A stretch of DNA of 64,000 bases from NCBI GenBank assembly GCA_035544015.1, contig DATKIP010000093.1:1156-65155 (forward strand), in the 5' to 3' direction. Source of the stretch: Candidatus Saccharimonadia bacterium (lineage in GTDB: Bacteria > Patescibacteriota > Saccharimonadia > UBA4664). The notes beneath the pieces were generated by a model. The model saw only the letters and a list, made by a program, of their open reading frames with translations. It was not told the origin of the DNA and made no database searches. Below are positions 13,641-63,537 of this stretch, piece after piece. The translations under genes and the position numbers were made by a program. Position 1 is the first letter of the stretch. Every line of letters starts with the position of its first letter.

Positions 13641-13690
13641 AGTCGAGATCCTTTAATTTTGATACAGCAACAAAATACTGGGCTCAATCT

Positions 13691-25191: not shown

Positions 25192-25289
25192 CAGAATCGC
25201 TTGGCAAACATAAGAAGTTTGACACCCGTTGTGCAAACTGCTACGCTCGACATTAAGAACTCATTAAAAAGCTGTGGAGAAAAACAAGA

Positions 25290-34916: not shown

Positions 34917-34990
34917 AAGGCTTACCGCAAGCCACAGTCTTGCCCAAACCATAAGCACGATGTTAAAATGCTTATGTAACAAAGGTTGTG

Positions 34991-45030: not shown

Positions 45031-45040
45031 GCTCGTCTCG

Positions 45041-45724
45041 CTATTGAGTTTTGGTGAGGTACTCGTGCAGAGCCTTGCCCACACTCAATGCTGAAGCGGG
45101 ATTTTGGCCGGTTATCAGGTTTTTGTCGACCTCAATATTTTCTTGCCATAGCGGGTGCTTGGTGTATTTGGCTCCGCGTGCCACGAGCGCGCTTTCTAGC
45201 AAAAATGGCATTACCTTATCGAGATTGATGGCGCGCTCTTCGTCGTCGCTGAAGGCCGCCAGGTTTTTGTCTTTCACCAAAAAGCTGCCGTCACTCAACT
45301 TTACATTAACCAGTCCGGCGGGCCCGTGACAAACAGCCGCCACCCCTTTGCCGTCCTCAAACATTTTTGACGTTATGTGCTGGAGCGCGAGATTATCCGC
45401 AAAGTCCCACATCGTGCCATGACCGCCCACGTAGTAAATCGCCGCGTAGGTGTCCGGGTCAATATCCGCTGGCCGCAAGGTGTCAGCCAGCTTGCTCTGC
45501 AATTCGTCGTCTTCCATGAGTTGTTTTTGGAGCGGATCAGCCTCATCGTACCCATCGGCTCGAACAGCCCCACCGAGCGGGCTCACAAAATCAATTGCAT
45601 ACCCGTTGCCTCTCAAAAAAGCGTAGGGCTCGCCCATTTCGCTAAAGTGAAAGCCAGTTTTGCGGCCTGTCGAACCAAGCTCGGTGTGGCTCGTAACGAC
45701 AAAGAGTAGTTTTTTCATGATCAT
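45041..45724 (-). CDS. DJ-1/PfpI (class I glutamine amidotransferase-like, Hsp31-type) protein
   Basis: AAVCHGPAGL nucleophile-elbow motif; 227 aa. Confidence 0.75.
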   Translation of the reverse strand: MIMKKLLFVVTSHTELGSTGRKTGFHFSEMGEPYAFLRGNGYAIDFVSPLGGAVRADGYDEADPLQKQLMEDDELQSKLADTLRPADIDPDTYAAIYYVGGHGTMWDFADNLALQHITSKMFEDGKGVAAVCHGPAGLVNVKLSDGSFLVKDKNLAAFSDDEERAINLDKVMPFLLESALVARGAKYTKHPLWQENIEVDKNLITGQNPASALSVGKALHEYLTKTQ

Positions 45725-45809
45725 CCCGCTTTCATTTACTGCTCAAAATAATATATCATTGCGAGTATACAAATAATAAGTACACACTTTTATGTGGTAT
45801 AGTACCCAT

Positions 45810-46184
45810 ATGGATACCATCAAAAAAGATCACCTCCAACAGTGCCCCATAGAAGCAGTCATGAGCGTTTTGGGGGGCAAATGGAAAGTGGTCGTTATCG
45901 ATCAGCTTCTGAGCAATAGCGTAATGAGATTTAGCGAACTTCGGCGAGCAATGCCGGGCGTGACCCAGAAGATGCTTACTCAGCAGTTGCGGGAGCTCGA
46001 ACAATCTGGAATTGTTGAGCGCAAAATATACCCGGTAGTTCCGCCAAAAGTAGAGTATCGTCTGACCACAAAAGGCAAAACCCTAGAGGATTTGTTGGTA
46101 TTAATGAAGCAGTGGGGGGTGGATTTTATCAATTCTGATCGGGCAGTAGAACCTCTGGCGATGATACAATCAAAAAATGCCTGA
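45810..46184 (+). CDS. HxlR-family transcriptional regulator (second copy)
   Basis: CPIEAVMSVLGGKWKVVVIDQL...FSELRRAMPGVTQKMLTQQLRELE. TGGTATAGT lies 7 nt upstream of ATG 45810 (leaderless). The track ORF starts at 45792. Confidence 0.75.
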   Translation: MDTIKKDHLQQCPIEAVMSVLGGKWKVVVIDQLLSNSVMRFSELRRAMPGVTQKMLTQQLRELEQSGIVERKIYPVVPPKVEYRLTTKGKTLEDLLVLMKQWGVDFINSDRAVEPLAMIQSKNA

Positions 46185-47019
46185 TACCCCCTCCAGAGTT
46201 AATGCATTCACGGCCAACGGCCGCAATGGCAATCCGGCCGGGGTAGTGTTGGGCGCTGATGCGCTCGATGAGCGGCAAATGCTAGCGGTAGCTTCCGGGC
46301 TGGGACTGTCCGAAACGGCGTTTGTCAGCCAGAGCGATCGCGCCACCCGTAAGGTTCGATTTTTTACACCCACCACTGAGGTCGACCTTTGCGGCCACGC
46401 GACGATAGCCACGTGGTCTCTGCTTCACAAACTAGGTGAACTCTCGGTGGGCACATACACGCAAGAAACCAAGGCCGGCTTGCTGAAAGTGGAGATTCAA
46501 AATGAGGGGCTGGTCTTCATGGAGCAAACGAGGGCCGCATTTTTCGACAAAGTCGAACCCCCCGAGGTTGCGGGCATGCTGGGGATAAAAGCCAGCGATT
46601 TCCACGCGTCGCTCCATCCCCAAATCGTTTCCACTGGCATCAGAGATTTGCTGGTACCGCTGATCGACAAATCGGTTCTGGCGCGGCTCCGTCCCAACCT
46701 TGACGCCATCGCTGATTTTAGTCGGCGGCATGACATTAGCGGCTTTCATGTATTCGCGCTTTTGGAAAACGAGCAATCCTTAGCCAGCGCCCGCAACTTC
46801 GCTCCCGCCGACGGCATTCCCGAAGAGTGCGCCACCGGTACATCCAACGGAGCGTTGCTTTGCTATCTGAAGAACGAGCGTACATTGCCCCAGCGGGAAA
46901 TATACCGCGTCGAACAAGGCGAGGCGATGGGCCGCCTATCCTACATTTACGGTACATTCAAAGACGAGATCGTCTGGATCGGCGGGCAGGCGGAAATCAT
47001 AGATCGGCCGGGCCTATGA
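46177..47019 (+). CDS. PhzF-family isomerase (phenazine biosynthesis-like)
   Basis: NPAGVVL...SETAFV...DLCGHATIA pattern of the PhzF/DAP-epimerase fold. Confidence 0.75.
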   Translation: MPDTPSRVNAFTANGRNGNPAGVVLGADALDERQMLAVASGLGLSETAFVSQSDRATRKVRFFTPTTEVDLCGHATIATWSLLHKLGELSVGTYTQETKAGLLKVEIQNEGLVFMEQTRAAFFDKVEPPEVAGMLGIKASDFHASLHPQIVSTGIRDLLVPLIDKSVLARLRPNLDAIADFSRRHDISGFHVFALLENEQSLASARNFAPADGIPEECATGTSNGALLCYLKNERTLPQREIYRVEQGEAMGRLSYIYGTFKDEIVWIGGQAEIIDRPGL

Positions 47020-47645
47020 CAAATTCGCCCTTAGCCCTGCAGCTCGTCGGCCCCACCGATCCACTGCTCAACCAAGTCGCCCAAAAAGTTACCCGCGATG
47101 AGATTAATGCTGATGGTATCCAGGCCGTCATTGCTGGAATGCTGAAATTGTCCGCCGGCAAAGGACACACCAAAGCAGACTCTCGCCAAATGGTGGGACT
47201 TGCCGCCGTACAGGTAGGCGTGGATAAGCGAATCATCTCAATTGATCTGGCGGCGGATGGTTCGAACAAGCAGCAGGACCTTTTGATAGTCATCAACCCT
47301 ACCATTGCCATCCGTTCTGCGGCCACGATGCCGGGCCGTGAAGGCTGTTGGTCGTGCGGCGATATTTGCGGGAACGTAGAGCGTGCGAAGGAGGTTACAC
47401 TTGAGGGCTTAGATCGGCACGGGAAACCTCTCAGGCTTCACCTTGTCGATTTCGCCGCTCGGATCGCCCAGCACGAGACCGACCATCTTGACGGTATTCG
47501 CTTCCCGGATCGCATCCCCAAGGACCATCCAGAGCGTCTTCACCTCGTCCGTCCAGCTGAATTTGAAGCATACCGACAGAACTGGCAAAATTGGCCCGTT
47601 GTATGTCCGCGCGAGACATGGGAGTCGATGAAAGCTGGAATGTAG
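47016..47645 (+). CDS. def: peptide deformylase
   Basis: The three PDF motifs GLAAVQVG, EGCWSC and HETDHLDG. ATGA overlap with the phzF-like stop. Confidence 0.8.
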   Translation: MTNSPLALQLVGPTDPLLNQVAQKVTRDEINADGIQAVIAGMLKLSAGKGHTKADSRQMVGLAAVQVGVDKRIISIDLAADGSNKQQDLLIVINPTIAIRSAATMPGREGCWSCGDICGNVERAKEVTLEGLDRHGKPLRLHLVDFAARIAQHETDHLDGIRFPDRIPKDHPERLHLVRPAEFEAYRQNWQNWPVVCPRETWESMKAGM

Positions 47646-47692
47646 CCAATATCAGTTGCTTCTCAGCTTGAGACAATTAGTATAGTAAGCAC

Positions 47693-48190
47693 ATGAACAC
47701 AACTACTACCCCCGAAGCCCCTACCAAATCCGCTGACCGGCCCGCTCTGCCGCCGCACCAGCCGCATAGCGAACAATTCTACACCGAACTCATCCGCATC
47801 ATCGCCGGGCTGTTCGTGGGGCTCATTGCGCTTATGACCTTCTTGCTCACCGTTGGTTTTCAGCACCCGCACAGCGGGTTTTCGTGGGCGCTCTACGCGT
47901 CGATCATCACGCTGGCGCTCAATCTCGTGGCGTACGTGGCCGGACATTACTTCCGGACCCAATGCGGCTTGCAGCGCCGGGCCTTTGACGCCGCCGCCGA
48001 TGAGGGCCAAGATCTGGCCGCTCGCAAGCGCACCTGGGAACAGGCTCGCAAGCGCCTCAAGGTCGTGCGCGCCCTGCAGCAAGTGCTGTTCATTGCTGCA
48101 GTCGTCGCCATGACCTGCCTGGCGCTCGCCACGGCCAACTTCTTCTTTACCATCGCGCCGCCCGCACCTTCGGCTGCGCCCGTCCAGTAG
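47693..48190 (+). CDS. hypothetical membrane protein
   Basis: 165 aa with 3-4 TM. Confidence 0.5.
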   Translation: MNTTTTPEAPTKSADRPALPPHQPHSEQFYTELIRIIAGLFVGLIALMTFLLTVGFQHPHSGFSWALYASIITLALNLVAYVAGHYFRTQCGLQRRAFDAAADEGQDLAARKRTWEQARKRLKVVRALQQVLFIAAVVAMTCLALATANFFFTIAPPAPSAAPVQ

Positions 48191-48259
48191 CGCTTTGCAG
48201 CCCCGCGCGCTTTAGCTTTGCGCCGCCACCGAGTATAATCAAGCGGTTACCACGATTGC

Positions 48260-48333
48260 GGCACCTTGGCGGAGTGGTTACGCAGCGGTCTGCAAAACCG
48301 CGTACACCGGTTCAATTCCGGTAGGTGCCTCCA
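48260..48333 (+). tRNA. tRNA-Cys (anticodon GCA)
   Basis: GGCACCT/AGGTGCC acceptor, anticodon stem GCGGT/ACCGC with loop CTGCAAA. TATAAT at about 48234-48239 upstream. Confidence 0.85.
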
Positions 48334-48451
48334 GGTATTATAGTTCGACATTCCGCGACAATTATTGTAGAGTAGTGAGCGCGCCCAATCTGGGCCGTGT
48401 TCCATCATGGCCTGCCGCCAGCACCACCGAGCCCCGAGGGAGGGGACGAGA

Positions 48452-49174
48452 ATGTCGGTCTTGATCAAGCTCGATGCCCCACCCACCGTGCCGCGCGATC
48501 TCCTGGCGCACCTCGCCGGACGGCTCCTCCATAAGCTGGTCGAAGGTCTCGATCATAGCCCCCTCGGGCCCTCAGAGTCGCCGGTACGGCAGCTGCCGTA
48601 CCGAAAGCTCCTGCAAGCCATCGGCTTCGAGCTCGGACGCCAGCGCTTCAACGCCGACCGTCGCAACCCGGACCGCCCCTATCTTCGCTACCTAGATTAT
48701 GTCAAGGAGCCTTCGGAGCTAAGCTCGGCCGAATTCGGCCACGAGGTAATCGAGGCGCTTAGGATAGCAGGGGAGCAAAAGCTCACCCTCTCGACGAGCG
48801 GCGCGATCCGGGTGCGGGAGACGGAGATCATCGATGACCGCTGGTTCCGCGACCACCCCAAGCTCGTGCGATTTGCCGACCGCGCCATCACCCTCTCGGT
48901 CACGAACAATTTTCTCCCGGAACCGCTCTTGCGGTTCATCGAGAACAGCCGGGCGAGGGTGATTGTCACCGATATACCGTCGCTAGGGCTGCGGGGAGCG
49001 GGCTTCTGGCTCAGCCCCAACGCTAAACCGTCAACCGAGTTCCTTGACCCGCCGTTCGGTTACGTACGCGTCAGCCTCGCCGACCGTGAGGTTGACGATG
49101 TGGTCGACGTCATCATAGAGCAGCTGGAAAACTGGCCCTGGTTCCAGCGGCAACTTGCTCTAGCCCAATTCTGA
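48452..49174 (+). CDS. hypothetical protein
   Basis: ATG at 48452 preceded by GGGAGGGG. 240 aa. No domain recognised. Confidence 0.5.
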   Translation: MSVLIKLDAPPTVPRDLLAHLAGRLLHKLVEGLDHSPLGPSESPVRQLPYRKLLQAIGFELGRQRFNADRRNPDRPYLRYLDYVKEPSELSSAEFGHEVIEALRIAGEQKLTLSTSGAIRVRETEIIDDRWFRDHPKLVRFADRAITLSVTNNFLPEPLLRFIENSRARVIVTDIPSLGLRGAGFWLSPNAKPSTEFLDPPFGYVRVSLADREVDDVVDVIIEQLENWPWFQRQLALAQF

Positions 49175-49278
49175 CACCCTCAATCTAGGGCCACCCGGCC
49201 CGCAGAGCTAGGCTCGTACCGCGCTCTGCGGGCCTTCTCTGTGTCAATTTCAACTGCTATCATTACTCCAGTCACCCT

Positions 49279-49362
49279 GGGCGGGTGGTGGAATGGTATA
49301 CACGGAGGACTTAAAATTCTCTGCCGCAAGGATTGTGGGTTCGACTCCCACCCCGCCTACCA
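49279..49362 (+). tRNA. tRNA-Leu (anticodon TAA), class II
   Basis: GGGCGGG/CCCGCCT acceptor (G-U at pair 1), anticodon stem GAGGA/TTCTC with loop CTTAAAA, long variable arm, T-loop TTCGACT. Confidence 0.8.
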
Positions 49363-49366
49363 GTAA

Positions 49367-49921
49367 TTATCGCTCGATTGATCGTAAAAACGCCGTAAAC
49401 TCCGAACTGGCCATCAGCTGGTCGTACTGATCCCTGGCCCAATACGAGTAATCCGCGCCGGCCACCGCGGCGCCATACTCATCCCACCGCAGCCAGGCAT
49501 AATCTCCGACCTCTTCCGGATTCGGAGCTGGCTGCCCGTCCGTACGCGCCACAAACACTGGGCAAATCTCGTTTTCAATAATCCCGTTAAACGGAGGAGT
49601 CATGTAGCGATAATCCGGCAGCATCACGCGGATATCACTCACTGCCAGCCCCAGCTCGTACTCCGCTCGCCGCCGGATCGCGTCCTCGAAGCCTTCGCCC
49701 GGCGCCGGGTGGCCGCACACACTGTTGGTCCACACGCCGGGCCACACCTTTTTGCTCGCCGCGCGCTGTGTCACCAAAAATCGCCCGGTCTCGTCAAACA
49801 CGTAGCACGAAAACGCCCGGTGCAGCGGCGTGTGCGCGTGGTGCGAAGCCAGCTTGGGGGCCGTGCCGATCTCCCGGCCGCGCTCGTCTACGAGGACAAT
49901 CATTTCCATGTTGGTCATCAT
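49367..49921 (-). CDS. idi: isopentenyl-diphosphate delta-isomerase, type 1
   Basis: [40 protein letters not shown] is near-identical to the E. coli Idi core (LHLAFSSWLFN...[21 protein letters not shown]). The track ORF extends to GTG 49969 through a repeat element; ATG 49921 or 49909 is more likely. Confidence 0.85.
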   Translation of the reverse strand: [184 protein letters not shown]

Positions 49922-49930
49922 AGCAGACGC

Positions 49931-50033
49931 CAAAAACCAAACGACCCGCGTTTCGCTCATGCAAAACACGGGTAGATAATGCGCCTAGAGCGCGTGGGGG
50001 CGGCCGAATCAGTGCTTCGAGCTCGCCCCCGGT
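49931..50033 (-). repeat. roughly 100-nt structured repeat, copy 1 (two hairpins plus T-run on the minus strand; terminator-like)
   Basis: About 90% identical to 51164-51264. The minus strand reads GGGGGCG...CGCCCCC hairpin, then ACCCGTGTTT-TGCATGAGCG-AAACGCGGGT hairpin, then TTTGGTTTTTG. Confidence 0.55.
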
Positions 50034-50048
50034 GGAGGGATTATTGGG

Positions 50049-50474
50049 TTACGCCGACGCGACGACGGACAGCCGCGGCTCGTGGGCGAGAAACTCGCGC
50101 AGTTGCCGCTCGATCTGCTCGCTGATCGAGTGCTTGGCGCACGTCACCACGACCTGGTCCGTCTCCGAGACGTATCGCACCCAGACCAGTTCCGCCACCT
50201 CTCCCTCCAGACAGAGGGCCAGATCCGGCAGGGTGAGCAGGTTGAAGTGAACGCGGGAGGGCAGCATCTGCAAGCGGACACCCCCACGGTCGGGAGTCAC
50301 AATCGGCATGAAGCCGATCTCGGCCACCACATGCAGGTACAGCTCTCGACCGTACCCGAATTCCCGTTGCCGCCTCACGCGCTCCAGCTGGCGATGCCGG
50401 TACCGCCAGCTGCCGATTTCGTAACAACCAGCGAGCACGAGTAACACGAGTAAAGCGATGACCCAGTGTGGCAT
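50049..50474 (-). CDS. membrane protein, paralog A of a duplicated module
   Basis: ATG at 50474 preceded by GGAGG with a 5-nt spacer. N-terminal TM. A homologous block (...LPSRVHFNLLTLPDLALCLEGEVAELVWVRYVSETDQVVVTC) matches paralog B. Confidence 0.55.
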   Translation of the reverse strand: MPHWVIALLVLLVLAGCYEIGSWRYRHRQLERVRRQREFGYGRELYLHVVAEIGFMPIVTPDRGGVRLQMLPSRVHFNLLTLPDLALCLEGEVAELVWVRYVSETDQVVVTCAKHSISEQIERQLREFLAHEPRLSVVASA

Positions 50475-50698
50475 GACGACCTCCGCGTCTCGAGCCGACA
50501 GAACATGAACAAGGTACACTATAACATAGATATAATATATTTCAAGTCTTCCCACCTAGCGTCGCCTACCCACAACTATCCAAAAATAAGGCGGTTTTGA
50601 GCCGTATTATTTGTTACGAGTGATCGTCCACTTTCGAGCGCGTCAATGAGAAGATACCCCAGCACTGTCATTCGACCGTAGTTCAGAGAGGACAATGC

Positions 50699-51094
50699 AT
50701 GAGACGCACTCTAGCTCGGCTAGGAGTGATGCTGGCCCTGGTTCTGCTCGCGGCGGGATGCGGCGCCCCAGCGCCCGACACCGCCTCCGTGCGAAACGAC
50801 CAGCAAGGCGCCCTGATCAACCTGGCTTTGGCCGCCGGCTATAAAATCGCAGGCATACCGTCGTATGAAGTAATGCGGTGGACGACGTATGTCTGGATAC
50901 CCGACTGCAAAGCGAAAATCACGATCGACGGCAACACCGCACCGGCAGCGGAGAATCCAACGTCGTTTACGGTGAACAGCATTGGTGGAGTTCCGCTCAT
51001 CGTGAGCAATCCCGGAACCGACACCACCAACCTATCGGCCGCCGCTCTCAAGTCCATCGACGGGATGCGCCAGAGGCTCGGATGCACCCGGTAA
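50699..51094 (+). CDS. lipoprotein (lipobox LAAGC)
   Basis: 131 aa with signal peptide MRRTLARLGVMLALVLLAAGCG. Confidence 0.55.
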   Translation: MRRTLARLGVMLALVLLAAGCGAPAPDTASVRNDQQGALINLALAAGYKIAGIPSYEVMRWTTYVWIPDCKAKITIDGNTAPAAENPTSFTVNSIGGVPLIVSNPGTDTTNLSAAALKSIDGMRQRLGCTR

Positions 51095-51163
51095 GACAGT
51101 GACAGTGAACCCCGCGGCGCCGGTGCGGGCCGCGGGGTTCACATCCCAGTGGCAATTATTGCT

Positions 51164-51264
51164 CAAAAACCAAAACACCCGCGTTTCGCTCATGCAAAAC
51201 ACGGGTATACTACGCTCAGAGCGCATGGGGGCGGCCGAATCAGTTCTTCGAGCTCGCCCCCGGT
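51164..51264 (-). repeat. roughly 100-nt structured repeat, copy 2
   Basis: See copy 1. Lies immediately 3' of paralog B. Confidence 0.55.
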
Positions 51265-51285
51265 AGGAATTGAATGCAGCTCGGC

Positions 51286-51720
51286 CTAGCCCAGCTGCAC
51301 CTCGTACCGAGCCTCTTCCCCCACGTTCGCTGTCAGGAAGTTCGCAACGTCGTTGCAGAGGGTCGGCGTGAAGCACGTTACGATCACCAACCCGACCCTC
51401 CGAACATACTGCACCCGCACCGCTTCGCTGTCTGTGCCCTCCAGGCGGAAGGTGAATGGCGGAAGGAAGCGCAGCTGCGCGGTGCGGGAGCTGTCCACGA
51501 GCTCGAGTCGCCGGCCCGGGCCGGACGCCGACTCGGCGCTGCTGAACTGAGCCCCGAGCACGAACAGAATCTCGGTATACAGCTGCAAGTCGGCGGCTTC
51601 CTCGAGCCGGTCCTGGCCGAACCTTCGCAGTGCGACGCAGCGGATGCGAGTCCAGATCAGCAGGGCTGCGACTGCCACGCCGCAGGCTATCAACCAAGCG
51701 TAGCCGGGGAGAGCAAACAT
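51286..51720 (-). CDS. membrane protein, paralog B
   Basis: ATG at 51720 preceded by GGAGG with a 5-nt spacer, the same arrangement as paralog A. Confidence 0.55.
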   Translation of the reverse strand: MFALPGYAWLIACGVAVAALLIWTRIRCVALRRFGQDRLEEAADLQLYTEILFVLGAQFSSAESASGPGRRLELVDSSRTAQLRFLPPFTFRLEGTDSEAVRVQYVRRVGLVIVTCFTPTLCNDVANFLTANVGEEARYEVQLG

Positions 51721-51783
51721 TTTGACCTCCAGAGGAGAGAGTACGGACGAGACCAAACTATTATAGCATTAAAACTAAAAAAT

Positions 51784-52677
51784 TCAAGACCGCAAACGCC
51801 GCGCTCGCCGCACCAGCGCCCACAGCCCCACCCCCAGCAACAACAACACCGTGCCGCCCACAATCACAAACGTCACCCGCGGCATGAGCAGCATCCACCG
51901 CGACACCTCCTCGGTGCGGCCGAGATATTTCACCGTCGCCGTCACCTTATACAGACCAATCGGCGCCGGTGCCGGCAGCGCCAGGTCAAAGCGCCGCGTC
52001 GTGCCGGGCAGCACCTCGCCTTTGAGTGGCACCGCCTTGCCCGCATCAGCGCCAAACGGGCCCGTCAGCCGCGCGGTGCCCTCGGCCAAAAAGTGCAGGT
52101 TGCCGTCGTTGTGCAGCCGCAGCGCGCCCCGCACCGGCCCCACCGATTGCAGCCGCGCCACCTCCAGGGGCATCACGCTCCCGTCTTGGCGCACTTCGCC
52201 CCGCACGTTCACATAAAACAGCGTGCCGATGCGCTCAATCCGTGACACAAACGCCCCGCCGCTGCCCGCCGGCGGAATCGTCTCCACAAACACCGCCGCA
52301 TAATGCCCGCCGATCGCCGCCGTCCGCGGTACGTTCACCGTGTAATCGAAGGTTTGCTCCACCCGCGCCTTCACCGTGAAGCTCCCGGCGGGCAGACTAA
52401 ACCACGACACTGGTGACACATCCGCCGCCTTGCCGCTGCTGTCAAAATTCCCCACGTAGGTCTCACCGGTCACGCGATAATCCGTGGCGTACACGCGGTA
52501 ATTCACATCCGTCGCGCCATCGTTGATCACGGTAATGTGCCCGCGGTACGTGCCACCCGGATCCAGCGCCACCTCCTGGCTCGTCGGCGACACCCCGATG
52601 CCCTGCACCGCACCCCAAGCCCCGGCCGGCCACCCCGCAACCAAAAACAGCCCTAACGCTAGCCCAAATCGCCGCAC
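51784..52677 (-). CDS. DUF916-like cell-surface protein, third copy
   Basis: GTG 52677 gives signal peptide (M)RRFGLALGLFLVAGWPAGAWG, 5 nt after the upstream stop. GGHYAAVFVETIPP motif. C-terminal TM plus RRARRLRS. The track start is TTG 52728. Confidence 0.55.
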   Translation of the reverse strand: MRRFGLALGLFLVAGWPAGAWGAVQGIGVSPTSQEVALDPGGTYRGHITVINDGATDVNYRVYATDYRVTGETYVGNFDSSGKAADVSPVSWFSLPAGSFTVKARVEQTFDYTVNVPRTAAIGGHYAAVFVETIPPAGSGGAFVSRIERIGTLFYVNVRGEVRQDGSVMPLEVARLQSVGPVRGALRLHNDGNLHFLAEGTARLTGPFGADAGKAVPLKGEVLPGTTRRFDLALPAPAPIGLYKVTATVKYLGRTEEVSRWMLLMPRVTFVIVGGTVLLLLGVGLWALVRRARRLRS

Positions 52678-52681
52678 AAGC

Positions 52682-53296
52682 TTAATTCGTCGTAATAGTA
52701 TACGTAACGGTGGTAGAATACGTCCCAATCGGCTGACTGCTGCTTACCCGCGCACTATACCACACGGTCGACGACGCCGAGCCCGTGCTCGCGGTGGTCT
52801 TGATCGTAAACGGCGACGCATTGGTGGGGATCCCCGCGTAGGTCAGCGAGCTCGGCGCCGCACTCGAAATCGTAGTGGTCGGCCCGGCGCCAAATCCGCC
52901 CAAGCTGTCGATGCGCCAGCCCCAATGGTTGTTGGTGAGCGTGGCCGGCGACCCTGGTGTGCCCGCGCCGGTCGCAATCGTATTGGCGCCGCTCACCATG
53001 TCGGTCACGCTGGCGCTCGTCTCTTTGAGCGTCACCGTAAACCCAGCCGTATCATTGGTGTCGGCGGTCACCGTGTCGCTCGCCGCCGACTGCTTGCCGG
53101 TCGAATCCGGCGTGATCGCTCCCAGCGTCACCGTCGGCCCCGAAGAATACGAAATAATCACCGGATTCACGGTGAGGTTGAGCGTGGTATCGGTGGTTTG
53201 CGTGTCGGCACTCACCGCAAACGGCAGCGTCACCGCCGCCAAATTTATTCCCAGAATTCCGAGCGCTAGAGTTTTGTTTCGGCTAAGCTTAAGCAT
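52682..53296 (-). CDS. secreted WxL-like surface protein (short form)
   Basis: Signal peptide. NNHWGWRIDSLGG and C-terminal IGTYSTTVTYTITTN match the two-motif WxL architecture. Confidence 0.6.
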   Translation of the reverse strand: MLKLSRNKTLALGILGINLAAVTLPFAVSADTQTTDTTLNLTVNPVIISYSSGPTVTLGAITPDSTGKQSAASDTVTADTNDTAGFTVTLKETSASVTDMVSGANTIATGAGTPGSPATLTNNHWGWRIDSLGGFGAGPTTTISSAAPSSLTYAGIPTNASPFTIKTTASTGSASSTVWYSARVSSSQPIGTYSTTVTYTITTN

Positions 53297-53409
53297 TACC
53301 CCAACAATAGGGCAAATCCTTTACCAAAGTCAAATAAAGCCCCCATATCGCCCCTCCGCAAAGCGCACAACATTTGCTATACTATAGTCAACAAACCAAA
53401 GGGTACCGC

Positions 53410-53967
53410 ATGAACACAACGATCATTATATTAATTGTAGCCGCAGTGTTGGCTGGGGCACTCATTGCGGTCTACAACGGGCTCATCCGCTCGCGCGTCC
53501 GCGTCGACGAGGCCTGGAGCGACATCACCGTCCAGCTCAAGCGCCGCTACGACCTCATTCCCAACCTCGTTAACACCGTCAAGGGCTACGCCGAGCACGA
53601 GTCCAAAGTGTTCACGCAGGTCACCGAGGCTCGCACCCAGGCCATGAACGCCACCGGCCTCACCCAAAAAGCCGAAGCCGAAAACATGCTCGAAGGCGCC
53701 CTCAAGAGTCTGTTTGCCGTCTCTGAAGCCTACCCCGACCTCAAGGCCAACCAGGGCTTTCAGCAGCTCCAAGGCGAACTCGTAGACACTGAGGACAAAA
53801 TCCAGGCTTCGCGCCGCTTCTACAACGGCTCAGTGCGCGATTACAACATCAAATTGCAAGTCTTTCCCACCAGTCTGCTCGCCGGCATGCTCGGGTTTAC
53901 TCACCGCGACTTCTTTGAGGTCGAGAACCAGGCCGAAGTCGAGAAGGCCGTCGAAGTTAAATTCTAA
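53410..53967 (+). CDS. lemA: LemA family protein
   Basis: N-terminal TM then LIRSRVRVDEAWSDITVQLKRRYDLIPNLV...FYNGSVRDYN. ATG 53410 preceded by AAAGGG. Confidence 0.8.
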   Translation: MNTTIIILIVAAVLAGALIAVYNGLIRSRVRVDEAWSDITVQLKRRYDLIPNLVNTVKGYAEHESKVFTQVTEARTQAMNATGLTQKAEAENMLEGALKSLFAVSEAYPDLKANQGFQQLQGELVDTEDKIQASRRFYNGSVRDYNIKLQVFPTSLLAGMLGFTHRDFFEVENQAEVEKAVEVKF

Positions 53968-53979
53968 TCAGAGGACTAC

Positions 53980-54549
53980 ATGAAGCTGTCAGAATACCGA
54001 AATAGTAGCAGCTGGCAGAAAGCCATCGATCTGGGACCCAAACTAATGGCTTTGGCAGAGGAGCTGCCCGCCAGCGAAGAAACAGGCCTGAGCCTCCAGC
54101 TGCGCCAGCTCATGGTGGAGCTACCCGCCACCATCGCCGCCGATCTGGTGCAGGAGCACAGCGACGAGCGGCTCATGCCCGCGCTCAAGTTGCTCGCCAC
54201 CCTCGAGCTCATCGATCGCGTATACCCCGCGCTCGATACCGCCGGCGTGCGCAGCGAGGCCGATGCGCTGGCCGAGGGCCTCGTGTCGGGCGAGCCGGCG
54301 GCCCGCGACGCCGAGCCGCCCCAGCCGGCGCCGGCGCCCGAACGGGAGCTCGAGCCCGCCGCCACTCCGGTGCTGGCCTCAGAAGTCGGCGCCGGCTCCG
54401 AGGTGAGCGTGAGCCCCGACGGCACCGTGGGCGATCAGCCGGCCGAGCCCGCCGCCGCCAGCGCCCCGGCTCCCACCATCGTCCCCGTCACCACCGCGTC
54501 CGAGCCATCGCCACAGGAGTCCAATGTACACTCAGATAGCCAGCAATAA
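53980..54549 (+). CDS. four-helix-bundle protein (23S-rRNA-IVS-protein-like) with acidic low-complexity tail
   Basis: N-terminal pattern SEYRNSSSWQKAIDL...ELPASEETGLSLQLRQ...ELPATIAADL resembles TIGR02436. GAGGA SD. Confidence 0.45.
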   Translation: MKLSEYRNSSSWQKAIDLGPKLMALAEELPASEETGLSLQLRQLMVELPATIAADLVQEHSDERLMPALKLLATLELIDRVYPALDTAGVRSEADALAEGLVSGEPAARDAEPPQPAPAPERELEPAATPVLASEVGAGSEVSVSPDGTVGDQPAEPAAASAPAPTIVPVTTASEPSPQESNVHSDSQQ

Positions 54550-55411
54550 ACGCCGCAGCCTGCTGCTCATCCTCGGCTTCATCGTCTTCGTCGGCGGGCT
54601 CGATTGGCTGTTTTCGCGCCTGCTGCACCAGCCGGCCGCCTTCATCCCCATCCTGATCGTGGCCGTCATCTACGCCGGCGTTTCATACTTCTTCTCGGCT
54701 CAGATCGCGCTCTCGATGAGCGGCGCCCGCGAGGTCCAGAAAAAAGACGCCCCCCAGCTGTACCGATTGGTCGAAAACCTCACCATCGCCGCCGGCCTGC
54801 CCACGCCCAAGGTCTACATTATTGAAGACGCCTCGCCCAATGCCTTTGCCACCGGCCGCGATCCGCAACACGCCGTGGTCGCCGTCACCACCGGCATCCT
54901 CGAGCGCCTCGAAAAAACCGAGCTCGAAGGCGTGCTCGCCCACGAGCTCAGCCATGTTGGCAACTACGACATCCGCTTCATGGCGTTGGTGACCGCCCTC
55001 GTGGCGGTAGTGTCGGTGATTTCCGACCTCCTGCTGCGGCTGTCGTTTTGGGGCGGCGGAGACGACGATGAAGGCGGCGGCAACAACAACGGCCTGCTCA
55101 TCATCCTCAGCATCGTCGGCGCCATTCTCGCGCCGCTGGTAGCCGCCGTCATTCAGTTTGCCGTCTCCCGCCAGCGCGAATACCTGGCCGACTCGTCCGG
55201 CGCGCTGCTCACGCGCTACCCCGAAGGCCTCGCGCGGGCTCTCGAAAAAATTTCTGCCGACCCCCAACCCATGCAGCATGCCAATTCTGCCACCGCTCCG
55301 CTCTACATCTCCAATCCCCTCAAGGGCCGCAGTCTCGCCGGCCTCTTCGACACCCATCCGCCCATCGCCGACCGTATCAAACGCTTGCGAGAAATGGAGA
55401 CCAAACAATGA
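54524..55411 (+). CDS. htpX: zinc metalloprotease HtpX
   Basis: HELSHV zinc motif; TM topology and 295-aa length typical of HtpX. Confidence 0.85.
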   Translation: MYTQIASNKRRSLLLILGFIVFVGGLDWLFSRLLHQPAAFIPILIVAVIYAGVSYFFSAQIALSMSGAREVQKKDAPQLYRLVENLTIAAGLPTPKVYIIEDASPNAFATGRDPQHAVVAVTTGILERLEKTELEGVLAHELSHVGNYDIRFMALVTALVAVVSVISDLLLRLSFWGGGDDDEGGGNNNGLLIILSIVGAILAPLVAAVIQFAVSRQREYLADSSGALLTRYPEGLARALEKISADPQPMQHANSATAPLYISNPLKGRSLAGLFDTHPPIADRIKRLREMETKQ

Positions 55412-56199
55412 CAACCCGCCGCGCCGCCCGCTCAAAGCCCGCTAAGTCCACCGGCGCCTGGAAGCTGTGGGTCGCCGCGGTGGCCGACATGCGCACCCAA
55501 TGGAAACGCTACCTCGCTATTCTTGCCGTCGTCACCGTCCCCCTCAATCTGTTCAACTTATTTCCTGGCCTCGCCACCGACAGCACCTTCAATCTCGCTA
55601 CCCAAATCGCCGCCGTCATCATGAACGTAGCGCTCATCTGGGCTATCGTCGAGTTTGAACGCACTGGCGTCACACCTGGCATCGGCGCCGCATACTACGA
55701 CGGTTCGGTCGCCATCGTACGCTTTCTCATGAGTGCACTGTTGCTCGTGCTTATGCTCGTGCCCGCCGCCTTTGCGGCCACGCTCTACATCATCGGCTTC
55801 CTGGCGGTCAGCGACGCCGGCACCATTGCCGAACAGCTCATCCTCGCCTCCATTTGCCTGCTCATCGCCGCGGTCAGTGGCTGGTGGATGGTGCGTTTCG
55901 GCTTGGCGCCCACCATCGCCGTGGCCGAAGGCGCCCGGCCGCTCGCCGCACTGCGCCGCTCGCGCCGACTCACCCTCGGCCGGTTTTGGCGCGTGTTCAG
56001 CCGCTATGCCGCCCTGGTATTCTTCATTGCCGTCACGGCTGTACCCATCGCGCTCGTCACCGCGGGGCTGTCGTATCTGAAGCTCGGCCCCATTCCTACC
56101 ATTTTCTTCGGGCTCGCCACCACCTTTACGGCCTTACCACTATTGAATCTCTATCTCCTCAAGCTCTACCGCAGCCTCGAATCCACCATTAAGGCATAA
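55408..56199 (+). CDS. polytopic membrane protein, hypothetical
   Basis: ATGA overlap with htpX; 6-7 TM. Confidence 0.5.
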   Translation: MTTRRAARSKPAKSTGAWKLWVAAVADMRTQWKRYLAILAVVTVPLNLFNLFPGLATDSTFNLATQIAAVIMNVALIWAIVEFERTGVTPGIGAAYYDGSVAIVRFLMSALLLVLMLVPAAFAATLYIIGFLAVSDAGTIAEQLILASICLLIAAVSGWWMVRFGLAPTIAVAEGARPLAALRRSRRLTLGRFWRVFSRYAALVFFIAVTAVPIALVTAGLSYLKLGPIPTIFFGLATTFTALPLLNLYLLKLYRSLESTIKA

Positions 56200-56224
56200 A
56201 AACACCGGACTGCGCCACGCAGGG

Positions 56225-56230
56225 TATAAT
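56225..56230 (+). promoter_or_regulatory. -10 element (GGGTATAAT) for leaderless ligA
   Basis: TATAAT ends 6 nt before ATG 56237. Confidence 0.4.
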
Positions 56231-56236
56231 CATCAC

Positions 56237-58261
56237 ATGACCCACCAGCAAGCCCACGACCGCCTGGCCAAACTCCGCGATCAGATCAATGACTACCGCT
56301 ACCACTATCACGTGCTCAATGAGAGCATCATGAGTGAAGCCGCGGCCGACTCGCTCAAACACGAATTATCCCAACTCGAAGCCAAATTCCCCGACCTCAT
56401 CACCCCCGACAGCCCCACCCAGCGCGTGGCCGGCAAGCCCTCGGACCGCTTCGCCAAAGTCCGCCACTCGGTCCCCATGATCAGCCTCAATGATGTTTTC
56501 AGCCGCGACGAGGTCGAAGCCTGGGCCGATCGCATCAACAAGCTCACCCCCGGCGCCACTACCGAGCTCTTCGCCGACACCAAAATGGATGGGTTCGCCT
56601 GCGCGCTGGTGTACCAAGACGGTGCACTCACCCAAGCCGTTACCCGCGGCGACGGGCAAGTGGGGGAGGACGTCACCATGAACGTCCGCACGATCGAGTC
56701 CGTGCCGCTGCGCCTGCGCGCGTCCAAGGATCACGCCGCATTCCTGCGCGGCCGCACCGAAATCCGCGGCGAGATCGTCATGCTCAAAAAAGACTTCGAG
56801 GCCCTAAACATTGCCAACACCGAAGCCGGCCGCCCGCTGTTTGCCAACCCCCGCAACACCGCCGCCGGCACCATCCGCCAGCTCGATCCGGCGCTGGTGG
56901 CCGCGCGTCCGCTCACGTTCTTCGCTTACGACCTCCTGCGCGACGATCCCGCCGAGGTGCCCACCTACGCCTTCGCCTATGACACCATCCGGGCGCTCGG
57001 CATCAGCACGGGCCGCCACGCCACCACCTTCACCACCCTCGACGGCCTCATGCAGTTCATCGATCACTGGTCCGAGGCCCGTGCCCAGCTGCCCTTTGGC
57101 ACCGACGGCATCGTGGTGAAGGTCAACGACCGCGCCGTCTACCGTGCTCTCGGCGTGGTTGGCAAGGCCCCGCGTGCCGCCGTGGCCTACAAGTACCCGG
57201 CCGAGGAAGCCACCACCGTGATCAAAGATATCGTGCTCTCGATCGGCCGCACCGGCGCCGCCACCCCCATCGCCACTTTCGACCCCGTGGTGGTTGCCGG
57301 CACCACCGTGACTCACGCCAGCCTCCACAACGCCGACGAAATCGCCCGCCTCGATGTGCGGGTAGGGGACACCGTCATCATCTACAAAGCCGGCGATATT
57401 ATCCCCAAAGTACTCCAATCGCTCCCCAAGCTCCGCCCGAAATCAGCCAAACCCTTCGACATGGAGGCCGAGCTCGCCCGCCAGTATCCCGAGCTCGAGT
57501 TTGTGCGCCCCGAAGGCGAAGTGGTCTACCGCCTCGCCAATGCCTCCGGCCCGCTCCTGCTCAAAAAAGCCGTCGAGCATTATGCCAGCAAGGGCGCCCT
57601 CGACATCGACACCCTCGGTGAAAAAAACGTCATCACACTCGTCGACGCCGGCCTCGTCCAAGACCCCGCCGACATCTACGCCGTCACCAAAGACCAGCTC
57701 CTAGAGCTTGATCGTTTTGCCGACATCTCGGCCACCAAGCTCACCGACGCGATCGGGCGCGCCAAAACCCCCGAGCTCCCGCGCTTCATCTACGCCCTCG
57801 GCATCCGCCACGTCGGCCAGCAAACCGCCGTCGACCTCGCCGAGCACTTCGGCACCCTCGAAGCCCTGCAAAACGCCACCCTCGAAGACCTCGACGCCAT
57901 CGACGGCATCGGCCATGTCGTCGCCGAGAGCGTGCTAGCCTACTTCGCCGACGACGACAACGCCGCCCTCCTCCGCAAATTCCATTCCCTCGGCGTCAAT
58001 CCCCAGACCTACCACAAAACCACCGGCCCCCTCACCGGCGTCAATTTCGTCATCACCGGCACCCTCGGCATGGGCTCCCGCGAAGAAGTCGCCGCCAAGC
58101 TCGTCGCCCTCGGCGCCAAAGAACAAAACTCCGTGAGCAAAGACACCACCTACCTCATCGTCGGCGAAAATCCAGGGGCTTCGAAGCTCGCAAAGGCGAA
58201 GAAGCTGGGGACGAAAACGTTGGATGAGTCGCAATTGCTTTCGATGTTGAAGGCAGATTAA
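56237..58261 (+). CDS. ligA: NAD-dependent DNA ligase LigA
   Basis: Adenylation motif TKMDGFA, OB/Zn/HhH/BRCT order, 674 aa. Confidence 0.9.
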   Translation: MTHQQAHDRLAKLRDQINDYRYHYHVLNESIMSEAAADSLKHELSQLEAKFPDLITPDSPTQRVAGKPSDRFAKVRHSVPMISLNDVFSRDEVEAWADRINKLTPGATTELFADTKMDGFACALVYQDGALTQAVTRGDGQVGEDVTMNVRTIESVPLRLRASKDHAAFLRGRTEIRGEIVMLKKDFEALNIANTEAGRPLFANPRNTAAGTIRQLDPALVAARPLTFFAYDLLRDDPAEVPTYAFAYDTIRALGISTGRHATTFTTLDGLMQFIDHWSEARAQLPFGTDGIVVKVNDRAVYRALGVVGKAPRAAVAYKYPAEEATTVIKDIVLSIGRTGAATPIATFDPVVVAGTTVTHASLHNADEIARLDVRVGDTVIIYKAGDIIPKVLQSLPKLRPKSAKPFDMEAELARQYPELEFVRPEGEVVYRLANASGPLLLKKAVEHYASKGALDIDTLGEKNVITLVDAGLVQDPADIYAVTKDQLLELDRFADISATKLTDAIGRAKTPELPRFIYALGIRHVGQQTAVDLAEHFGTLEALQNATLEDLDAIDGIGHVVAESVLAYFADDDNAALLRKFHSLGVNPQTYHKTTGPLTGVNFVITGTLGMGSREEVAAKLVALGAKEQNSVSKDTTYLIVGENPGASKLAKAKKLGTKTLDESQLLSMLKAD

Positions 58262-58839
58262 TTAGCCTTTTTTGGTGCGTATTTATCGGTCAATATCTTC
58301 TTCGTGGTCTCACTAATATCTGAGGGTAGTCCGACGCGCATGAACAGTCGTGCAAAATTTTGCGCTAGATATTCCCTATAAGGAGAGATCAACTGGAGCT
58401 TTTCAGGATATTTACGGCAAAAGTTATCCAAATAACCAACCCTTACCGCGTAAATTCGACTTAAATCAACCACTAACGGCTCAGATGGATAGGCAGAAAT
58501 TTCGGTAGAAGCCAATACCGAGAACCGAGGGTATTTCCCATTCAGCAGATCAGAAAGCTTATTGCGATTTTTAAACTCTGTTTTTCCTTTAATAAAAATT
58601 GCTAATTCATAAACCGGACATAGTTGTACATAATCAACCTTGATCCTACCGGGCTGCAGATCACATGATTGTGTCATGAGTACGACATCCTTCTCGACCA
58701 CGTCCACATCAACGGTGGTATTACTAGCGTCGAGCGACACCTCTTCATCGAGAAGTTCAAGTATCGGGAGCTGGCGAAAAATATCCCCTTGTGATAGGGG
58801 TTCTGTCGTTGAAGCTAGTTGGTACCATTCTGACGCCAC
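58258..58839 (-). CDS. hypothetical protein (AT-rich islet)
   Basis: 193 aa. Low GC relative to its flanks. Confidence 0.45.
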   Translation of the reverse strand: MASEWYQLASTTEPLSQGDIFRQLPILELLDEEVSLDASNTTVDVDVVEKDVVLMTQSCDLQPGRIKVDYVQLCPVYELAIFIKGKTEFKNRNKLSDLLNGKYPRFSVLASTEISAYPSEPLVVDLSRIYAVRVGYLDNFCRKYPEKLQLISPYREYLAQNFARLFMRVGLPSDISETTKKILTDKYAPKKAN

Positions 58840-58844
58840 GAAAT

Positions 58845-59162
58845 TTAGCCCAGCTCATTTTCATCAGAATGGTTAATGCGCGAAGGGCTGTCCTTGCGCC
58901 AGTGCTTAATATTCGCGATAAATTTTTTGCGCCGATTCGAATACCCCAAGGCTAGAGGGGCGGTGAGGATAAAACTCGAAGCTCCTCCGGTTAGCATTGA
59001 TGTCGCACTAAGGACATTCTGCGAAACCGAAGAAGTGGTCTGAAAACTAGGAGAAATTGAGAATGCCGGCAGCCCAACCAAGAGAACGGCGGAGGCAACG
59101 ACGGGTGCGCGCGGATATCTGAAGAACAAAAATGAACTGGCTGTTGTAGGTATCGCTTTCAT
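58845..59162 (-). CDS. small membrane protein (AT-rich islet)
   Basis: 105 aa with 2 TM. Confidence 0.4.
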   Translation of the reverse strand: MKAIPTTASSFLFFRYPRAPVVASAVLLVGLPAFSISPSFQTTSSVSQNVLSATSMLTGGASSFILTAPLALGYSNRRKKFIANIKHWRKDSPSRINHSDENELG

Positions 59163-59686
59163 TTTGCGATCTCCCCCGGAGGCGGCGACACTGCAAATAC
59201 TTTTGTACCAATAAGTGAGTCATTTATGGTAAAGTTTGCTCTATAATCACCGTAAACTGAAAATGTCAACGCCTGGACCGCGATAGCCCCCCCAATTTTT
59301 TGGCTCACGGCATCATGGGGGAGTTTTAGCGCATTAATTTGCAAATTTGTATCGAGGGGCTTACCATCCGGAGCAAGTATTTTAAGCTCAAGCTGAATGG
59401 GCAATTCGTTCTCGGAATCGTTGGTGAGGGATACGCTAAACGCAAAATACATTGCAGGTGCCGCTACGGGGAGGGTGTCTGCAAAGATGCGATCATACAG
59501 ATTAATGAGGCTCGCCTTGCCCTGTTCTCCGACAATTACGTTCTCGCACAAAAGCAAATATTCAGTAGTGTGTTTCATAGTACAAGTAATTATACACGCG
59601 CTAATTGTAAAGAGATATTGATGTTGCCTATAAATAAGCCGGGCAGGTGCGAACAAGTCCTCTGCACGTTTCTCGCAGATAGGCAC
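59159..59686 (-). CDS. hypothetical protein (AT-rich islet)
   Basis: 175 aa; may start at the internal M (MKHTTEY...). Confidence 0.4.
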   Translation of the reverse strand: MPICEKRAEDLFAPARLIYRQHQYLFTISACIITCTMKHTTEYLLLCENVIVGEQGKASLINLYDRIFADTLPVAAPAMYFAFSVSLTNDSENELPIQLELKILAPDGKPLDTNLQINALKLPHDAVSQKIGGAIAVQALTFSVYGDYRANFTINDSLIGTKVFAVSPPPGEIAK

Positions 59687-59693
59687 ATCTTAA

Positions 59694-60098: not shown

Positions 60099-60215
60099 TT
60101 ACAAAACCCCAATTTTATTGAATTATTATACGCCTAAAGCGTAGGCATAGCGAATCTGGGCTTTAGGTGGGGATCGCCAGCAGACATTACGCCCAGCCCC
60201 TGCTAAAATACATCA

Positions 60216-61999: not shown

Positions 62000-62002
62000 C
62001 CC

Positions 62003-63514: not shown

Positions 63515-63537
63515 GACGCGCCACGGAGATAATCGCC

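Follow-up and report, generated by a model that had tools for sequence, protein, structure and literature searches.

A structured 3'-terminal element with terminator anatomy, nearly identical behind two divergent paralogs of a Saccharimonadia bacterium

To our knowledge, almost nothing is known of the RNA biology of bacteria of the candidate phyla radiation (CPR). Intrinsic transcription terminators close a transcription unit at its 3' end and consist of a G+C-rich stem-loop with a U-rich tract immediately behind it, both on the transcribed strand; those of old paralogs ordinarily drift in sequence. Hairpins followed by a terminator are also the typical architecture of bacterial sRNAs. In E. 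coli, PMC8144298 describes near-identical sRNAs (rrA, rrB, and rrF) at the dual-terminator ends of the rrnA, rrnB, and rrnD operons. Here, we describe a locus of an uncultured soil Saccharimonadia bacterium (CPR) in which an element of about 100 nt with terminator anatomy stands in two nearly identical copies behind two paralogous genes whose coding DNA has diverged to saturation. Coordinates refer to the window, i.e. the whole 64,000-nucleotide stretch that was analysed, and H1, H2, and H3 denote the hairpins of the element in the order of transcription. The features of the locus are:

51760..51787, minus strand: promoter-like site of paralog 2 (TTGAAT, 16 nt, TG-extended TATAAT; 10/12 matches)
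51286..51730, minus strand: paralog 2, with Shine-Dalgarno (SD) sequence GGAGG at 51726-51730, ATG at 51720, stop at 51286, 144 aa
51164..51264, minus strand: element copy 2, 101 nt, with H1 at 51227-51261, H2 at 51211-51225, H3 at 51175-51208, and U-tract at 51164-51176
51105..51142, plus strand: perfect 14-bp inverted repeat GTGAACCCCGCGGC / GCCGCGGGGTTCAC, directly past the stop of the lipoprotein gene and lacking a T-run
50699..51094, plus strand: probable lipoprotein gene (MRRTLARLGVMLALVLLAAGC...), an ORFan convergent with paralog 2
50518..50545, minus strand: promoter-like site of paralog 1 (TTGAAA, 16 nt, TG-extended TATAGT; 10/12 matches)
50049..50484, minus strand: paralog 1, with SD GGAGG at 50480-50484, ATG at 50474, stop at 50049, 141 aa
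49931..50033, minus strand: element copy 1, 103 nt, with H1 at 49996-50030, H2 at 49981-49993, H3 at 49944-49973, and U-tract at 49931-49943
49917..49925, minus strand: putative extended -10 promoter of idi (TGcTATGAT), assigned from motif architecture
49367..49909, minus strand: idi, encoding a type 1 isopentenyl-diphosphate isomerase (NUDIX), 180 aa, ATG at 49909

The two minus-strand open reading frames (50049-50474, 141 aa; 51286-51720, 144 aa) are, as originally predicted, true paralogs, and distant ones. In a pairwise comparison their proteins share 28% identity over 110 aa (E 1e-8), and their coding DNA is 44% identical overall and 42% identical at third codon positions, which is to say saturated. 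The identical geometry of their ribosome-binding sites was likewise confirmed, with GGAGG, 5 nt, and ATG in both (GGAGGTCGTCATG and GGAGGTCAAAATG), an arrangement that occurs only 4 times in the window. Each gene has a promoter-like site of its own in addition to this strong SD, and the two sites are the best matches in 20 kb. Both products, taken to be membrane proteins, begin with a hydrophobic helix, followed in paralog 1 by an Arg-rich stretch, and the AlphaFold model of paralog 1 (pLDDT 72), which consists of a long N-terminal helix and a small alpha/beta domain, had zero fold matches in the PDB. A word-indexed search of 5.8 billion proteins and an HMMER profile search of 1.84 billion representatives returned only self-hits for the paralogs, and searches of Pfam, PADLOC, and PHROGs gave zero matches for the paralogs, the lipoprotein, and two upstream ORFans. 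A foreign origin of the paralogs was rejected on their native-like GC3, that of paralog 2 (0.82) resembling core genes. The gene between them on the plus strand (50699-51094) had been called a lipoprotein gene, and its translation carries the signal peptide and lipobox (LLAAGC) that this assignment calls for; the JGI annotation gives it 121 aa from a start at 50729. Where the convergent genes meet, the 14-bp inverted repeat past its stop codon lies back to back with copy 2 of the element.

The element itself is doubled, in agreement with the original prediction. Its copies (49931-50033 and 51164-51264) align over 103 nt at 90.3% identity and differ by a single 2-nt indel as well (blastn E 9e-33), and core blocks of 35 nt and 30 nt each occur exactly twice in the window compared with an expectation of 0.00. 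Both copies begin 18 or 24 nt past the paralog stop codons, and in direct orientation they bracket a unit of 1233 nt. The similarity between them ends precisely where the structure does; upstream of H1 it fades within about 10 nt, and the flanks are unalignable at the DNA level. No promoter belonging to the element was detected upstream of H1, where similarity is gone within 10 nt. A small ORF inside the element was discarded, since the 2-nt indel breaks any frame and the similarity is at the nucleotide level, and so was 3'UTR anti-SD pairing, since the potential pairing sequence CCUCC lies upstream of H1 in copy 1 only. The 8 substitutions and one indel that distinguish the copies break no base pair (P = 0.008 under random placement) and leave the stems of H1 and H3 free of changes (P = 0.003), values to be read with the structure predicted from the same two copies, which, having no orthologues, offer no compensatory covariation. 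H1 and H3 thus show 0 changes in 52 stem nucleotides, and their loops differ at 1 of 11 positions. In the H2 stem or beside it lie three changes, each of which preserves or lengthens the pairing: a G-C pair becomes G-U, a U-G pair becomes U-A, and one U-A pair is new. H2 and the linker are the least conserved part of the element and also the most single-stranded.

Folding of the minus strand recovered the two main hairpins that had been claimed, whereas the second of these spans 13 bp in copy 1 and 15 bp in copy 2 rather than 10 bp, and an additional hairpin (H2, 5-6 bp) lies between them. H1 comprises 13 bp with two bulges, the bulged bases lying on one arm (-22.3 kcal/mol), and has no U-tract. 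H3 comprises 13 or 15 bp, including 7 G-C pairs, and a 4-nt loop (-20.6 kcal/mol), and a U-rich tail (CGUUUGGUUUUUG or GUUUUGGUUUUUG) follows it directly. The folding energy is -54.8 kcal/mol (z -4.4) in one copy and -57.2 kcal/mol (z -6.0) in the other. The plus strand cannot form the G-U pairs and for that reason folds less well (z about -3.4). H1 and H3 form independently of each other, with pair probabilities of about 1; no antiterminator pairing competed with either in pair-probability folding of the element, and when the 3' arm of H3 was blocked or untranscribed, its 5' arm was essentially free and H1 was unchanged. H3 and its T-run scored as terminator-like in both copies, and the structure described at the outset as terminator-like is in fact the strongest site of this kind in the whole 64 kb. 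Perfect stems of at least 12 bp followed by a T-run occur in the 64 kb only in the two element copies and at one site after tRNA-Val. Other terminator-like sites are not clearly enriched over shuffled sequences (22 vs 19.5 in 20 kb), and those with stems of at least 8 bp number about a dozen in the window vs 7.5 in shuffles. On the transcribed strand, then, each copy presents a G+C-rich stem-loop and a U-rich tract, and it does so at the 3' end of a gene with its own promoter-like site. From this sequence evidence, the element is most likely the 3' untranslated region (3'UTR) and strong transcription terminator of both paralogs.

Copy 1 lies immediately ahead of idi, whose first 20 codons had been thought to derive from the repeat. 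This proved to be an artefact of ORF calling: the reading frame that opens inside the repeat, at GTG 49969, is the mechanically longest ORF only, and the homologues and both database annotations place the start downstream. The N-termini of idi homologues fall at MEMIVL or no more than a few residues away from it; NCBI calls a protein of 180 aa (100% identical) from ATG 49909, and JGI one of 184 aa from ATG 49921, the candidate start codons lying 10-22 nt beyond the end of copy 1. The motif TGcTATGAT is situated 6 nt past the U-tract and 7 nt ahead of ATG 49909, and the same extended -10 architecture recurs in the window ahead of about ten further starts of long ORFs, JGI having annotated at least 4 of these. 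The putative promoter would thus be idi's own and of the leaderless type, and a leaderless mRNA is predicted.

The best explanation, and a probable one, is that the paralogs share a 3'UTR and terminator module that is kept alike by gene conversion and/or selection and that insulates neighbouring genes. Each cassette would consist, in order, of a sigma-70-like extended -10 promoter, a 5'UTR of about 40 nt, the GGAGG SD, the ORF of 141 or 144 aa, and the element. Transcription of a paralog would pass through H1 and H2 and halt at H3 and UUUGGUUUUUG by Rho-independent termination, leaving an mRNA whose 3' end, enclosed in stable hairpins, is probably protected from 3' exonucleases; a role of H1 in this stabilisation is our guess. 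The terminator of copy 1 would shield the idi promoter, 6 nt downstream, from upstream transcription, and that of copy 2 would keep antisense transcription out of the lipoprotein gene, which is convergent with paralog 2. Concerted evolution would best account for the 90% identity: the copies, separated by 1.2 kb, would undergo short-tract gene conversion, with purifying selection on the hairpins filtering the differences that are left over. Conservation of the primary sequence appears to exceed what a terminator needs, and selection for termination alone would be insufficient as its cause. Similarity borders that coincide with the structural ends are no less expected of a functional or mobile module than of a conversion tract. 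If the shared-module reading holds, the anatomy of these genes is ordinary and the chief use of the result lies in annotation: the idi start is set at ATG 49909, two monocistronic ORFan cassettes are defined, and strong canonical terminators emerge as the exception, and leaderless promoters as common, in this Saccharimonadia genome.

Since primary sequence is conserved beyond structure while adjacent synonymous sites are saturated, the element might instead act as a sequence-specific functional RNA, as sibling sRNAs derived from the 3'UTRs or as a platform for an RNA-binding protein that co-regulates the paralogs, the terminator hairpin being only its 3' end. Bulged bases are a common feature in protein recognition, and two of them lie on one arm of H1. 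The hairpins-then-terminator layout is also sRNA-like, and the sRNAs of the E. coli rrn operons (PMC8144298) supply a precedent. We nonetheless regard this reading, which takes in the riboregulator of the original prediction, as rather unlikely: upstream of H1 there is no conserved promoter or processing signal, and the expected seed region (H2 and the linker) is the least conserved part. Rfam returned only tRNAs and noise; neither strand of the element gave a match, whether across the whole window at the gathering threshold or in 49800-51400 at E up to 10, and Rfam contributed neither a family nor a cis-regulatory match. A covariance model of the element (R1), run over the 64-kb window with filters off and over a further 8 kb with default filters, recovered only the two known copies (137.8 bits for copy 1, 133.7 bits for copy 2). 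It recovered nothing in 13 loci from relatives, syntenic loci included, so that conservation of the element in these relatives was not borne out. Public contig collections, from which the source sample is evidently absent, were scanned by exact words. An H3 20-mer matched one genome contig, a Clostridia MAG, with flanks that could not be aligned with the element, and two viral contigs with equally unalignable flanks; an H3 21-mer matched one metagenome contig, inside a coding region with unrelated flanks; and an H1 22-mer had zero matches in metagenome and viral contigs. With no homologue in the other genomes searched, there is no family to which such an RNA would belong, and genes and element alike appear to be orphans. 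The more specific version, in which the tail is a lineage-specific sRNA pair or a protein-binding riboregulator, belonging to an as yet undescribed family and acting in a sequence-specific manner, is a little more doubtful still. Sharp similarity borders with unalignable flanks, and a 1233-nt unit bracketed by two direct copies, could also be the marks of an autonomous DNA repeat, either a dispersed or mobile terminator repeat or a Campbell-type insertion site at which a 1.23-kb segment (the lipoprotein gene, paralog 1, and one element) entered beside paralog 2. Genes for tRNA-Leu and tRNA-Cys lie less than 2 kb from the locus, and the locus sits in a variable region: relatives whose LemA is 84-91% identical have neither paralog, nor the lipoprotein gene, nor idi beside the conserved cluster. 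A repeat of this kind is nevertheless improbable, as the 64 kb and a further 8 kb contain just two copies, integron attC core sites are absent, integrase, transposase, and phage genes were not found nearby, and paralog GC3 is native-like. The ends of the element (ACCGGGGGCG... and ...GGTTTTTG) are not inverted copies of one another, and the absence of terminal inverted repeats and of a target-site duplication also speaks against a MITE. Element k-mers are not over-represented, with 10- to 12-mers occurring 0-3 times outside the two copies, which likewise eliminates a terminator of the DNA uptake sequence type, and the same relative position behind homologous genes argues for co-inheritance of element and gene.

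The original prediction had offered two further readings. That the repeat is the functionless, passive scar of an old segmental duplication agrees with the direct orientation of the paralogs and their common layout of promoter, SD, ORF, and tail, and the duplication part stands inasmuch as the genes are paralogous. Passivity does not, because the coding DNA, at 44% identity, is saturated, and the element has kept 90%: neutral non-coding DNA would be expected to drift no less than third codon positions have (42% identity), and the substitutions avoid base pairs (P about 0.008). We consider a passive scar very improbable. Least credible of all is an attenuator or riboswitch-like leader controlling idi, to which the short distance of 10-22 nt from the end of copy 1 to the candidate idi starts lends some support. 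This reading is unsupported because there is no mutually exclusive antiterminator fold, the 5' arm of H3 being free until the 3' arm is made; because no gene on the same strand comes after copy 2, its downstream neighbour being the lipoprotein gene, which is convergent and presents its 3' end; and because idi has its own extended -10 promoter-like site past the U-tract, as do many genes in the window. Rfam, moreover, gave no cis-regulatory match.

Among known systems, integron attC sites and other cassette-associated repeats, such as the VCRs of Vibrio, are similar in that a conserved imperfect palindrome of about 100 nt stands behind each of several small ORFs, which are co-oriented and have no known function. 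The element differs in carrying neither RYYYAAC nor GTTRRRY core sites at its ends, on either strand of either copy, a lack that excludes an attC site, and in forming three separate hairpins instead of one long bulged hairpin; the ORFs have their own promoters, are mutually homologous, and enclose an opposite-strand gene, and no IntI or recombinase domain was found in the neighbouring ORFs. REP/BIME, Correia, ERIC, and RUP/BOX repeats are also structured, extragenic, about 100 nt long, and able to terminate or stabilise transcripts, whereas the present element occurs only twice in about 72 kb, each time behind a member of one homologous gene pair, and has no terminal inverted repeats. The paralogs resemble phage morons as compact units with a strong promoter, SD, and terminator of their own, and differ from them in their native-like codon composition and in the absence of a prophage context or PHROGs match. 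With the rrn-end sRNAs (PMC8144298) and 3'UTR-derived sRNAs in general, the element shares the form of a short, structured, hairpin-bounded 3'-end RNA that is near-identical between paralogous units; it differs in that H1 has no U-tract and so is not a first terminator, and in that it occurs in one lineage only and is known here from its DNA sequence. Intrinsic terminators with an upstream stem-loop in the 3'UTR show the same stem of 13-15 bp with 7 G-C pairs, 4-nt loop, and U-rich tail, the same position just past a stop codon and operation on one strand only, and the same extra stable hairpin upstream. They differ in that canonical examples are otherwise scarce in the window, and in that the whole 100-nt tail is here 90% identical between genes with saturated coding DNA. 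The only unusual point of the locus is how much better conserved the tail is than the paralogs it follows. The importance of the tail would rise only with a stable RNA or a binding partner; as it stands, a 90% identical non-coding tail beside saturated coding DNA provides a small, clean case for concerted evolution or for a sequence-specific 3'UTR function in CPR bacteria.

This window comes from the MAG of an uncultured Candidatus Saccharimonadia bacterium in soil; it is found in JGI 3300031184 (a 152-kb contig), NCBI and ENA contigs of 418-525 kb, and Logan run SRR8863102. In it the element, a structured direct repeat of about 100 nt, follows two small minus-strand genes (paralogs 1 and 2) and is arranged with its neighbors as follows.

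Features of the duplicated locus
51787-51760, minus strand: promoter-like site of paralog 2 (TTGAAT, 16 nt, TG-TATAAT)
51720-51286, minus strand: paralog 2 ORF, 144 aa (GGAGG, 5 nt, ATG)
51264-51164, minus strand: element copy 2, beginning about 21 nt past the paralog 2 stop codon
51105-51142: perfect 14-bp G+C-rich inverted repeat, 10-nt loop, directly past the lipoprotein gene stop
50699-51094, plus strand: lipoprotein gene, convergent, its 3' end facing copy 2
50545-50518, minus strand: promoter-like site of paralog 1 (TTGAAA, 16 nt, TG-TATAGT)
50474-50049, minus strand: paralog 1 ORF, 141 aa (GGAGG, 5 nt, ATG)
50033-49931, minus strand: element copy 1, beginning about 15 nt past the paralog 1 stop codon
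49367-49909, minus strand: idi, encoding a type 1 isopentenyl-diphosphate isomerase (NUDIX), next after copy 1

The inverted repeat stands back to back with copy 2 and has no T-run on either strand.

The repeat is real and statistically solid: its copies share 90.3% identity across 103 nt, interrupted by a single 2-nt indel, and its core blocks occur twice each in the window against 0.00 expected, confirming the duplication described in the original prediction. Logan SRR8863102 unitigs break within it, as a true repeat predicts. A covariance model of the element, run on the window and on 8 kb beyond it, recovered these two copies and no others, and scanning genome, metagenome, and viral collections for exact words of the element yielded nothing beyond chance matches, whose flanks are unrelated.

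As minus-strand RNA, the element folds into three hairpins, listed 5' to 3'.

Hairpins of the element
H1: GGGGGCG-A-GC-U-CGAA / UUCG-GC-CGCCCCC, 13 bp with two bulges, -22.3 kcal/mol
H2: 5-6 bp
H3: ACCCGUGUUUUGC-AUGA-GCGAAACGCGGGU, 13 bp in copy 1 and 15 bp in copy 2, -20.6 kcal/mol, then (C)GUUUGGUUUUUG

The predicted GGGGGCG/CGCCCCC hairpin thus stands, in a fold of three hairpins rather than two and with an H3 longer than the 10 bp proposed. The minus-strand folds have z-scores of -4.4 and -6.0, versus about -3.4 for the plus strand, where two G-U pairs of H3 become A-C mismatches. H3 and its tail satisfy the definition of an intrinsic terminator, bearing out the terminator-like structure first suspected. 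Perfect stems of at least 12 bp with a T-run occur in the 64 kb only at the two copies and at one strong terminator past tRNA-Val (17145-17175, 12 bp plus T-run). Terminator-like sites in general show no clear excess over shuffled sequence, either in the 20 kb from 44001 to 64000 (22 vs 19.5) or, with stems of at least 8 bp, in the whole window (about a dozen vs 7.5). We favor, with moderate confidence, the view that two orphan paralog cassettes, each comprising promoter-like site, GGAGG, ORF, and element, share this element as their 3'UTR and intrinsic terminator.

Independently assembled Logan contigs end exactly within the 30-nt H3 block identical in both copies, and short-read assemblies of the locus are fragmented by the repeat. 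Other identities were discarded: an integron attC site (core sites and integrase absent, three hairpins), a MITE (no terminal inverted repeats or target-site duplication), an uptake-signal terminator (k-mers not in excess), a small ORF (any frame broken by the indel), and foreign origin (native-like composition). A search for an independent promoter before H1 found none.

The suggestion of a transcription attenuator did not hold up. H1 and H3 pair with probabilities of about 1; folding revealed no antiterminator encoded in the element, and with the H3 3' arm blocked or untranscribed, the 5' arm stays unpaired and H1 keeps its fold. No gene follows copy 2 on its own strand, and the originally proposed Rfam search, with E values up to 10 allowed, gave no match for the element. 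Nor is the idi start derived from the repeat, as had been claimed: GTG 49969, inside the element, merely opens the mechanical longest ORF, while NCBI annotates 180 aa from ATG 49909 and homologues begin at MEMIVL or a few residues before. Immediately past the copy 1 U-tract lies TGcTATGAT, 7 nt before ATG 49909. An extended -10 box (TGnTAnnnT) 5-8 nt before the ATG, with no Shine-Dalgarno, recurs where some ten other long ORFs of the window start (3641, 13146, 14584, 31878, 41292, 42913, 45810, 46177, 60216), at least four of them JGI-annotated gene starts (41292, 42913, 46177, 60216). Taken together, these observations make a leaderless idi with a putative promoter of its own the most likely reading, and the copy 1 terminator would insulate that promoter; the pattern also points to leaderless mRNAs as a common class in this genome.

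The proteins of paralogs 1 and 2 share 28% identity (pairwise E 1e-8), and each has a hydrophobic helix at its N-terminus with basic residues behind it; judged by sequence, they are real paralogs, as predicted, though very distant ones. Their GC3 of 0.81-0.82 is on a par with that of core genes such as the ligase and the M48 peptidase, so they look like long-resident coding genes. Both are orphans: a profile of the pair matched only itself among 5.8 billion proteins and upon exhaustive scoring of 1.84 billion representatives, Pfam, PADLOC, and PHROGs gave no match, and an AlphaFold model (pLDDT 72) matched no PDB fold. Their promoter-like sites are the top two sigma-70 matches in 20 kb. The shared GGAGG, 5 nt, ATG geometry, correctly noted at both, is found at just four places in the window; both cassettes therefore have unusually strong, complete expression signals. 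Among 36 JGI-called genes inspected, only these two carry the full GGAGG.

At 13 loci from relatives (LemA 84-91% identical), the LemA, M48 peptidase, and ligase block is kept, and two surface-protein genes beside paralog 2 persist in several (proteins 62-81% identical). Both paralogs, the lipoprotein gene, idi, and the element are absent from all 13, placing the module in a variable, lineage-specific stretch. The element's presence in relatives had been offered as a check; its absence there says nothing on function, since the paralog genes are missing too. The closest homologues of idi are just 69-72% identical, one labelled Verrucomicrobiae; given this distance and its absence from the relatives' LemA-linked loci, idi may have been horizontally acquired.

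The window holds further repeats. A 28-31-nt motif, GTTCCACCTAACGTCGCA(T/C)TGG(C/T)GCACC, has three intergenic copies (13020-13049, 13690-13721, 14469-14496), one running into a 31-nt stretch 93% identical to the tRNA-Leu(CAG) 3' end and downstream flank. This 31-nt pair (2994-3024 vs 13710-13740) resembles att-like tRNA-end duplications and brackets about 10.7 kb, within which no integrase was found. Two tRNA-Leu genes (2888-3060 vs 10791-10960) are 79% identical over 174 nt, with similarity reaching into the flanks. Three stretches 76-79% identical in DNA (22492-23454, 24593-25193, 25461-26414) apparently represent paralogous genes of one tandem family. A direct repeat of 120 nt, 80% identical (38718-38837 vs 38976-39086), in a 1648-aa ORF (34988-39934) probably encodes a repeat internal to a giant surface protein, and a 68% identical 580-nt pair (18544-19118 vs 60306-60886) has its second member within an ABC-transporter ATPase gene.

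The single anomaly here is how well the element is conserved. Codon-by-codon alignment of the paralogs gives 44% DNA identity overall and 42% at third positions; at GC3 0.8 this amounts to saturation, and blastn between the modules found no similarity outside the element. A neutral scar of segmental duplication, the other reading first offered, would by now be unrecognisable. The 8 substitutions and the indel lie in loops or linkers or keep pairing in H2 (G-C to G-U, U-G to U-A, a new U-A); randomly placed changes broke no pair in just 0.8% of trials and avoided the H1 and H3 stems in just 0.3%. Under structural selection alone, compensatory changes should have been permitted, but H1 and H3 do not differ between copies at any of their 52 stem nucleotides. 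The most economical account combines purifying selection on the hairpins with gene conversion, which would have recently homogenised copies lying 1.2 kb apart. A sequence-specific RNA role, as an sRNA or protein-binding site, would account for the same facts; we consider it unlikely, and grant it a small share on account of the unexplained excess of sequence conservation. Such a role would have a precedent in the near-identical sRNAs reported at the dual-terminator ends of E. coli rrn operons (PMC8144298).
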